NCBI RefSeq assembly: GCF_000027125.1
Contig: NC_017626.1
Source: Escherichia coli 042
GTDB lineage: Bacteria > Pseudomonadota > Gammaproteobacteria > Enterobacterales > Enterobacteriaceae
Length of the DNA: 64,000 bases
Strand: one strand, 5' to 3'
Part shown: piece by piece, positions 50,290 through 51,695 of the stretch
Numbering within the stretch: position 1 is the first letter of the stretch
Layout: the number at the start of each line of letters is the position of its first letter
The notes under the pieces: model-generated
The model's input: only the letters and a program-made list of their open reading frames with translations
What the model was told of the DNA's origin: nothing
The model's database searches: none
Translations under genes and position numbers: made by a program

Positions 50290-50586
50290 TCAGGCAATTT
50301 TGCTATTTACGCAGCACTCCTCGCGTAAGAATTCAATTATCGCTTCCAGCATTGCGTATTGCGAAACACACATCAGCGTCCGACTCTCACGGTTTTGTTT
50401 GACCAGCCCTACCGATACCAGTGCTGAAATATGGTGACTGAGTGTAGAGCCGGGTATCCCAAGCTGCTTTTGCAACTCACCGACCGGCAAACCTTGTTCC
50501 CCCGCTTTGACCAGGTGTTTGAATATGAACAAACGGGTCGGGTGACCTAGCTCTTTCAGCGCTTTAGCAACTTCTTCCAACTGCAT
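50290..50586 (-). CDS. Second ArsR/SmtB-family metalloregulator
   Basis: 98 aa; HTH region GELQKQLGIPGSTLSHHISAL, C-terminal CC pair; divergent from the permease gene. Confidence 0.8.
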   Translation of the reverse strand: MQLEEVAKALKELGHPTRLFIFKHLVKAGEQGLPVGELQKQLGIPGSTLSHHISALVSVGLVKQNRESRTLMCVSQYAMLEAIIEFLREECCVNSKIA

Positions 50587-50693
50587 ATGACACCCCCTTT
50601 GTCTGGTTGATATTTCGATAATACCAGAAATATCTTGATCTGAATTTCATTTCGATTATTCTGGAAATATGGATTCATTCAATGAGGTTACGT

Positions 50694-51695
50694 ATGAGTA
50701 GTTGGCTTGCGATGCTGCAAGATGCCGCAGAGATGTTTGTGTTTCTCGCCGTCGAGCTTTCTTTGCTGTTTATAGTGATTAGTGCCGGTGTCAGCCTGAT
50801 AAGACAAAAGGTGCCAGACCATAAAATCCAGCAGATGATGGGGGCCAGAAAAGGGAGAGGCTATCTCCTGGCGGCTCTGTTGGGAGCCGTTACCCCGTTC
50901 TGTAGTTGCTCGACAATCCCCATGTTACGTGGATTGTTGTCAGCGAAAGCCGGGTTCGGTCCGACCCTCACTTTTTTATTTGTTTCACCGTTACTTAATC
51001 CCATTATCGTCGGACTAATGTGGGTAACCTTTGGCTGGAAAGTTACCTTGTTGTACGCGATTATCGCCGCCGGCATCTCCGTACTTGCCAGTATTATCCT
51101 CGATTCTCTGGGGTTTGAACGTCATATCATTGCCAGTAAAAGCTCATCAGCAAATTGTTGTGCTCCAGCCAAAACTTCGCCAGGGACGACATATACGCCC
51201 ATAAAAGTGAGTTGCTGTAGTCCAGCGGCTAAAGTCATTGAGAAACCCGCAGTTAACTGTTGCAGTACCAAAGCAGTGGCAAGTATTAATCCCATAAAAT
51301 TAGCCATCAAAGATGCATTGCAGCAGTTTAAAGACGTACTGCCATATCTTGTGTTAGGGGTATTACTAGGCTCTTTTATTTATGGCTTTATCCCCTCACA
51401 GTGGATTGCCGCTCATGCAGGGGCAGATAATCCCTTCGCCATCCCATTGAGCGCCGTTGTCGGAATTCCGCTGTATATCCGGGCAGAGGCGGTTATCCCT
51501 CTGGCATCTGTTCTGATGACAAAAGGAATGGGTCTGGGAGCATTAATGGCATTAATCATCGGCAGTGCCGGAGCAAGCCTGACGGAAGTGATATTACTTA
51601 AATCAATGTTCAGAATACCGATGATAGTTGCATTCCTGACGGTTATATTAGGTATGGCTATCTTGATGGGCTATTTGACTCAAATGCTATTTTAA
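50694..51695 (+). CDS. ArsP-like (COG0701/DUF318) permease with cysteine-rich loop
   Basis: ORF 50682-51695; ATG 50694 has a GAGG RBS. TPFCSCS motif in a helix; central loop ANCCAPAK...VSCCSPAAK...VNCCSTK with three CC pairs. Confidence 0.75.
   Translation: MSSWLAMLQDAAEMFVFLAVELSLLFIVISAGVSLIRQKVPDHKIQQMMGARKGRGYLLAALLGAVTPFCSCSTIPMLRGLLSAKAGFGPTLTFLFVSPLLNPIIVGLMWVTFGWKVTLLYAIIAAGISVLASIILDSLGFERHIIASKSSSANCCAPAKTSPGTTYTPIKVSCCSPAAKVIEKPAVNCCSTKAVASINPIKLAIKDALQQFKDVLPYLVLGVLLGSFIYGFIPSQWIAAHAGADNPFAIPLSAVVGIPLYIRAEAVIPLASVLMTKGMGLGALMALIIGSAGASLTEVILLKSMFRIPMIVAFLTVILGMAILMGYLTQMLF

Follow-up and report, generated by a model that had tools for sequence, protein, structure and literature searches.

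What is the function of the two divergent genes that lie between arsC and yhiS in Escherichia coli 042? The window analysed is a stretch of 64,000 nucleotides of contig NC_017626.1, and the genes in question encode an ArsR/SmtB-type regulator and a membrane permease. RefSeq labels at the identical locus are limited to ‘permease’ and ‘ArsR/SmtB family transcription factor’, and a search of the available literature library found no paper on these E. coli genes. An initial annotation, made from the DNA letters, had suggested a second, independently regulated metalloid efflux module, possibly of a methylarsenite or roxarsone type, or else a heavy-metal efflux module. We propose that the pair is quite probably a two-gene module for resistance to trivalent organoarsenicals and the E. 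coli orthologue of SpArsR/arsP from Shewanella putrefaciens 200.

The two open reading frames are genuine genes and not chance reading frames, because many complete E. coli genomes keep the pair (2222 of 5426, about 41%) and permease relatives occur in 80 other species. A genome was counted when 80% or more of the 1.65-kb region was covered, and the carriers have the pair under an uninformative annotation. The initial annotation had described a 98-residue ArsR/SmtB regulator and, divergent from it, a permease of roughly 333 residues. Both reading frames are as it described them (Table 1), with matches to NCBIfam NF033788 and Pfam PF03773, respectively. The longest open reading frame of the permease spans 50682–51695 (337 aa); the start chosen here, at 50694, has a GAGG ribosome-binding site, is kept in relatives and is also the RefSeq start. 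The intergenic spacer between the two genes is 107 bp in length.

The regulator belongs to the ArsR/SmtB metalloregulators (61.9 bits against NF033788, cut-off 55) and has 12 relatives of this family in the PDB at E < 1e-3. The closest solved relative is AfArsR (PDB 6J05, E = 4.7e-10), whose last helix ends in the vicinal cysteines C95 and C96; these align exactly with C91 and C92 of the E. coli protein. AfArsR senses As(III) via C95, C96 and C102 (PMC11868830). The E. coli regulator, however, has no counterpart of the third ligand C102; it stops six residues past the CC pair (CCVNSKIA) with no further cysteine. In this it resembles SpArsR, which uses the vicinal pair C101/C102 only and is selective for methylarsenite, MAs(III) (PMC11868830; PMC13236881). 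In an independent biosensor, an SpArsR/ParsP reporter was derepressed to 73% of the full level by 1 µM monomethylarsenite, MMAs(III), and to 9% by 50 µM As(III), and there was no response to dimethylarsenite, DMAs(III), or to pentavalent species (PMC12124457).

For the comparison, the SpArsR sequence was rebuilt from the biosensor construct given in the supplement of PMC12124457, which consists of Sput200_1227 and the native 222-bp promoter of arsP (Sput200_1226). Two letters missing from the PDF text were filled in via the related locus L036 of S. profunda, and the resulting length matches the published C101/C102 numbering. The rebuilt protein has 105 residues, with cysteines at positions 83, 101 and 102. 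Over 92 ungapped residues the E. coli regulator is 58% identical to it (E = 3e-41), its N-terminus being seven residues shorter, and its three cysteines (C73, C91 and C92) fall opposite C83, C101 and C102. These three cysteines are retained in all 60 regulator orthologues examined, and many Vibrio regulators have an extra cysteine three to five residues past the CC pair. The E. coli regulator shares with SpArsR the aligned vicinal pair, the lack of a third cysteine and a neighbouring arsP promoter with a common operator sequence; by its sequence it is an orthologue of this repressor, for which selectivity for MAs(III) has been published. We also considered a sensor of persulfide or sulfite, as in BigR/YgaV, and reject it: the match is weak (38.5 bits, cut-off 155) and the cysteines are at other positions.

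The spacer contains two predicted operator sites. Site 1 overlaps the predicted permease promoter (−35 at 50607–50612 and −10 at 50631–50636) and site 2 the predicted regulator promoter on the minus strand (−35 at 50682–50677 and −10 at 50660–50655), as located by a promoter scan. When spacers from E. coli to Aeromonas are aligned, both dyads stand out as conserved islands within otherwise divergent sequence, and the core of site 1 shows no change between E. coli, Aeromonas and Buttiauxella. The 22-nt sequence TTCGATAATACCAGAAATATCT, at 50614–50635, has an exact copy in the native arsP promoter of S. putrefaciens 200. In 80 of 85 loci, the DNA upstream of the permease has a match to the operator 20-mer with five or fewer mismatches, and background windows average about eight; the locus L015 has no conserved operator. 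Since the motif recurs 5′ of the permease in this many loci, the regulator, the operator and the permease move as one unit.

The Shewanella system, Sput200_1227/Sput200_1226, is likewise a divergent repressor–permease pair, and each of the two pairs is in or beside an ars gene cluster (the Shewanella view is from L036). The E. coli permease is 51% identical to the S. profunda permease of L036, a near-identical copy of S. putrefaciens 200 ArsP. As judged from these comparisons, the best explanation of the genes is that they represent, in E. coli, the already known SpArsR/ArsP system for methylarsenite sensing and efflux. The pair appears to be regulated independently because the main arsRDABC operon has an ArsR of its own, with an As(III) site of the R773 type (ELCVCDLC). 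The suggestion of a second metalloid efflux module under separate control is thus supported by the SpArsR orthology, the 22-nt operator, linkage to arsH (see below) and the separate R773-type ArsR. Of the substrates that had been suggested with it, the organoarsenicals are favoured by the SpArsR orthology and the heavy metals are disfavoured.

By orthology, the following mechanism can be pictured. The 98-residue repressor would bind as a homodimer to the two dyads (ATTTC-N10-GAAAT) of the intergenic region, and as each dyad overlaps one of the divergent promoters, it would silence its own gene as well as the permease gene. Methylarsenite, and probably also trivalent aromatic arsenicals, would bind the vicinal thiols C91/C92, with which the dimerisation helix ends on its C-terminal side, and the repressor would then leave the DNA. 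The thiol site is two-coordinate and would be poorly filled by As(III). The permease would hold the arsenical via C70 and C72 at a mid-membrane helix break, where these cysteines would face the conserved Arg263/Glu265 pair from the second structural repeat, and would export it, probably driven by the proton gradient. The disordered loop, rich in lysine and cysteine, is probably cytoplasmic and may pre-concentrate the thiol-reactive substrate.

Table 1. Features of the arsRDABC–regulator–permease region of E. coli 042 (positions in the window)
Feature	Position	Strand	Description
ArsR/SmtB repressor gene, SpArsR type by sequence	50290–50586	minus	98 aa; C73, C91 and C92; C-terminus EECCVNSKIA
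ArsP_1-family permease gene	50694–51695	plus	333 aa; RefSeq WP_001306360.1 ‘permease’; predicted trivalent organoarsenical exporter
TPFCSCS motif	50892–50912	plus	Permease residues 67–73, with C70 and C72; T67–S73 invariant in 82 sequences
Central hydrophilic loop	51111–51311	plus	Permease residues 140–206 (67 aa); CC pairs C155/156, C174/175 and C189/190
Operator site 1 (predicted)	50609–50634		GATATTTCgataataccaGAAATATC, that is GATATTTC-N10-GAAATATC; perfect 8-nt arms
Operator site 2 (predicted)	50649–50670		ATTTCGATTATTCTGGAAATAT; direct repeat of site 1, 37-nt spacing
arsR of the main arsRDABC operon	45854–46207	plus	Open reading frame translation and RefSeq; R773-type As(III) site ELCVCDLC
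arsD	46255–46617	plus	Vicinal cysteines MCCSTGVC, HCC and DCC
arsA	46635–48386	plus	Open reading frame and RefSeq annotation of identical locus
arsB	48429–49718	plus	Open reading frame and RefSeq annotation of identical locus
arsC	49731–50156	plus	Open reading frame and RefSeq annotation of identical locus
Repetitive extragenic palindromic (REP) unit between arsC and the regulator gene	50201–50238		Inverted repeat TATGTCGGATGCGACGC / GCGTCTTATCCGACCTA; 17-nt arms

Might the pair serve inorganic As(III) or Sb(III) instead, with the permease as a back-up or ArsA-assisted exporter beside ArsB? The sensor site would then be made of three sulfurs, C91/C92 of one subunit and C73 of its partner. C73 is invariant in 60 of 60 regulators and, by alignment with CzrA, is probably placed four residues before the start of an alpha-5 site that is formed across subunits, and the extra cysteine of many Vibrio regulators is reminiscent of the CCx5C arrangement of AfArsR. 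The pair also adjoins arsRDABC, and the loci L015, L030 and L031 have arsD-arsA-permease operons. However, SpArsR has the equivalent cysteine, C83, and yet shows the low response to As(III) given above; the E. coli regulator lacks a downstream third cysteine; and inorganic As(III) is already served at this locus by a dedicated sensor and an ArsAB pump. In addition, ArsP of Campylobacter jejuni exports MAs(III) and trivalent roxarsone, Rox(III), and not As(III) (PMC6205960, a review). We therefore regard an inorganic metalloid module as unlikely.

With respect to the permease, the protein matches Pfam ArsP_1 (PF03773) over its full length (E = 1.4e-51, model positions 3–293 of 294). The published assignment of the ArsP_1 family is to the TOG superfamily, as a protein with 4+4 transmembrane segments. 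C. jejuni ArsP (TC 2.A.119.1.1) is of the same Pfam and TCDB family and shares with the E. coli permease the CxC cysteine pair, the 4+4 helices, the central hydrophilic loop and a location at an ars locus; its gene is in a single operon with arsR, arsC and acr3, whereas the E. coli gene is one of a divergent pair. The conserved CxC pair is reportedly essential in C. jejuni ArsP, a protein of about 315 residues that is not known to have a long cysteine-rich loop. A sulfur-compound transporter, which the initial annotation had named as the finding that would speak against it, is rejected here, the family being ArsP_1 and not TauE or YeeE.

The E. coli permease has exactly eight cysteines, two in the TPFCSCS motif and six in the three vicinal pairs of the loop, all of which had been pointed out in the initial annotation. 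That annotation also took TPFCSCS as a mark of organoarsenical permeases, a reading that cannot be kept. The CSC core occurs in the SO_0444 Cu/Zn and SaoE families as well, and therefore the motif marks the superfamily and is no pointer to substrate.

This raises the question of whether Zn, Cd, Cu(I), Hg or another soft metal is what the permease exports, in which case the loop would serve to bind metal and the regulator would sense it through thiolates. SO_0444 is a Cu/Zn exporter (PMC3219624), and DUF318/ArsP-like genes matter in zinc or copper stress in Shewanella. The sole NCBIfam models that the permease matches are those for SO_0444 Cu/Zn efflux (NF033936) and SaoE (NF040736), families with which it shares the CSC motif, and cysteine-rich stretches are typical soft-metal ligands. 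Nevertheless, the matches are far below the curated cut-offs (109.2 bits against 300 and 86 bits against 325), so that the permease is a member of neither family, and the neighbours of an SAO locus are absent. SO_0444 and Shew_3410, which have zinc or copper phenotypes, are of the same superfamily; their genes are paired with a ZntR-type MerR regulator, whereas the E. coli permease is paired with an ArsR-type regulator that is orthologous to an MAs(III)-selective sensor. Furthermore, ars genes and arsH recur in the neighbourhood and czc, cop and mer genes do not; one merR/merT was seen, on p14EC029c, beyond an IS26. A soft-metal exporter thus seems improbable, more so than an exporter of inorganic arsenic.

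An AlphaFold2 model of the permease, built on 82 sequences, has a predicted local distance difference test score (pLDDT) of 87 and a predicted template modelling score (pTM) of 0.82, and is poor only at about residues 150–199. The modelled helices form two four-helix repeats that flank the variable hydrophilic loop, and the ArsP family has been described in similar terms, with 4+4 helices and a central hydrophilic loop (PMC7176098). The CSC motif is at a break between short helices 55–66 and 71–83. The equivalent break in the second half, residues 260–264, holds the nearly invariant R263 and E265, with I262-R263-A264-E265 as the pseudo-symmetric partner of the motif. The two halves align with each other as a weak match (E = 1.8e-4, probability 48%).

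A plain topology of eight transmembrane helices, all of which span the membrane, is rejected because the two most positive loops would face opposite sides. If the short-helix pairs 55–83 and 249–276 are instead re-entrant hairpins, both of these loops, one of them the cysteine-rich loop, would come to lie on one side. With hairpins, 15 of the 16 lysine and arginine residues in the loop segments that we tallied would be inside, K277 being the one outside; K116, in the short turn 114–116, was not part of this tally and would be outside as well. A sequence search found no solved structure for the permease family, Foldseek gave no significant match of the model to the PDB, and a profile comparison of the permease with ArsB gave no match. 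Perhaps ArsP_1 has the ion-transporter fold of the DASS/ArsB type and works as an elevator, with the CSC motif at the tip of a re-entrant hairpin.

The central loop offers another possibility. All three CC pairs fall within the stretch modelled as disordered, about residues 150–199, where pLDDT is below 50–60. The loop had been called unusual; across the orthologue group it turns out to be cysteine-rich and hypervariable. In 85 orthologues its length ranges from 37 to 114 residues, with 1–10 cysteines and 0–4 CC pairs, and cysteine is always present. The shortest form usually has C-x3-C (e.g. GCGSSCG), and long forms have up to ten cysteines and four CC pairs. The Shewanella loop has 78 residues with two CC pairs and two single cysteines, as compared with three CC pairs in the 67 residues of E. 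coli. Tandem Repeats Finder shows that the loop of L015 has grown by a 36-nt tandem repeat, 3.2 copies, which encodes KPVEPKTACCTP; the same program found no repeat in the E. coli loop DNA. On the evidence of these sequences, the three CC pairs are one state of a fast-evolving yet selected cysteine-rich segment.

ArsD of the same locus has vicinal cysteines in a similar local context (MCCSTG, compared with NCCSTK in the loop). There is no detectable homology, however, and the likeness is one of motif only: ArsD is a soluble folded protein that passes As(III) to ArsA, whereas the loop belongs to a permease, in which it forms a disordered insert. Our favoured guess is that the loop is a thiol antenna for trivalent arsenicals. 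In such a role it may catch them on the cytoplasmic face and feed them to C70/C72, the number of CC units being tuned by tandem duplication. That one or the other of these two ideas, an ArsD-like antenna or an elevator-type DASS/ArsB fold, takes the permease beyond an ordinary ArsP is a tentative proposal, and we think it rather doubtful.

How the pair came to be at this site can be addressed by comparison with K-12. The initial annotation noted its absence from K-12, and an intact pair was indeed not found in K-12 MG1655. K-12 does retain the terminal 70 bp of the regulator gene (window positions 50290–50359) and a 42-bp internal piece of the permease gene (51300–51341), and the alignment picks up again at 51967. 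These remnants of both genes show that the pair was deleted from K-12, and not inserted into E. coli 042 between arsC and yhiS as had been thought. The REP element 3′ of arsC, which the initial annotation had recognised as well, is also present in K-12. With respect to the genes on either side, E. coli 042 has the five-gene operon arsRDABC at 45854–50156, arsD and arsA included, and MG1655 has arsRBC only at the same site; yhiS is intact in E. coli 042 (52276–53499, 407 aa) and is a pseudogene split by IS5 in K-12.

A scan of species representatives found 80 loci, most of them in Vibrio, Shewanella, Photobacterium, Pseudoalteromonas and roseobacters, with permeases that are 47–68% identical to that of E. 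coli (best tblastn segment). A regulator homologue is nearby in 58 of the 80, and by gene-level clustering 41 regulators are divergent from and adjacent to the permease. At about seven of the loci, ars genes are no more than 8 kb away, and their arrangement differs between loci. The link to ars genes is strong in Enterobacteriaceae. The order arsRDABC-regulator-permease is that of the E. coli chromosome and is also found within a lambdoid prophage of Citrobacter. A Salmonella Tn3/IS66 island has arsRDABC-arsH-regulator-permease, with an arsH that scores 405 bits (TIGR02690, cut-off 292).

A plasmid form, with 74–80% protein identity, is present in 663 plasmid records from Enterobacteriaceae, 472 of them conjugative. 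In 250 of the 663 records, a single matching place spans 80% or more of the stretch from arsH through the regulator to the permease; in others, IS26 has removed arsH and the pair is retained. Only 61 of the 5426 E. coli genomes have arsH, and thus the chromosomal module is usually without it. The plasmid form (L010 1098–1973; H17–H40 and H56–H66) is carried on conjugative plasmids of IncI, IncF and IncHI types, one of which has blaCTX-M-65. Many of the sources among the listed examples are poultry, pig and retail meat, and there are human isolates too.

Could the genes instead be cryptic or in decay, without a present function in E. coli, or might they encode a transporter of another thiol-reactive compound? 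K-12 and more than half of the complete E. coli genomes have no intact copy, IS5 is found in the region of some strains (H1), and arsH is absent at the E. coli 042 locus. Yet neither reading frame is broken and the Pfam match runs over the full length, there is conservation of operators and promoters, even distant genera have the same catalytic and ligand residues, and plasmids keep the pair even where IS26 has removed arsH. We consider decay or another substrate of this kind very unlikely, the least probable of the alternatives.

It should be said that several of the observations above weigh against an organoarsenical module. At 58% identity to SpArsR, effector specificity could have shifted. 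C73 is as invariant as the CC pair. The ArsP_1 family includes the Cu/Zn exporters SO_0444 and Shew_3410, and so membership does not fix the substrate. An ars gene within 8 kb is lacking at roughly 90% of the 80 species loci, and the E. coli 042 chromosome has no arsH beside the pair.

If it is true that methylarsenite and aromatic arsenicals used as feed additives are resisted by means of this pair, it represents an overlooked co-selection marker, and the plasmid form might be co-selected by such additives. The pair would also take part in the arsenic metabolism of the gut, a setting in which the activity of ArsP has yet to be evaluated (PMC6953987), and the regulator would offer a native E. 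coli sensor of MAs(III) for biosensors. Deletion of the module from K-12 may explain why K-12 ΔarsRBC strains are clean hosts for methylarsenite assays.

Several other features of the related loci can be mentioned. In 11 Vibrio loci (e.g. L045 6872–7474), an extracytoplasmic function (ECF) sigma factor of the SigZ type with a cysteine-rich C-terminus (DCCHFS...KCRQC) is beside the regulator. It scores 240 bits against NF007215, cut-off 212, and related sigma factors that score below the cut-off are inside the plasmid (L010 7208–7753) and Salmonella (L004 1357–1899) ars clusters. On plasmid pM105, a ModE-like winged-helix protein adjoins arsA (L010 4550–4918; TIGR00637 76.6 bits, below the cut-off of 98.5). 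The Salmonella island has a second, distant ArsP_1 permease 5′ of arsR (L004 1–1159), which has 333 residues and is about 28% identical to the E. coli permease. It is followed by a Thioredoxin_3 protein, and a copy that is 68% identical is present in a Shewanella ars cluster (L036 4954–5949). Finally, arsD, arsA and a permease gene are co-oriented in Craterilacuibacter and Endozoicomonas (L015 5764–9023, L030 1173–4727 and L031 5448–9017), which hints that some ArsP_1 permeases may work with the ArsA ATPase.

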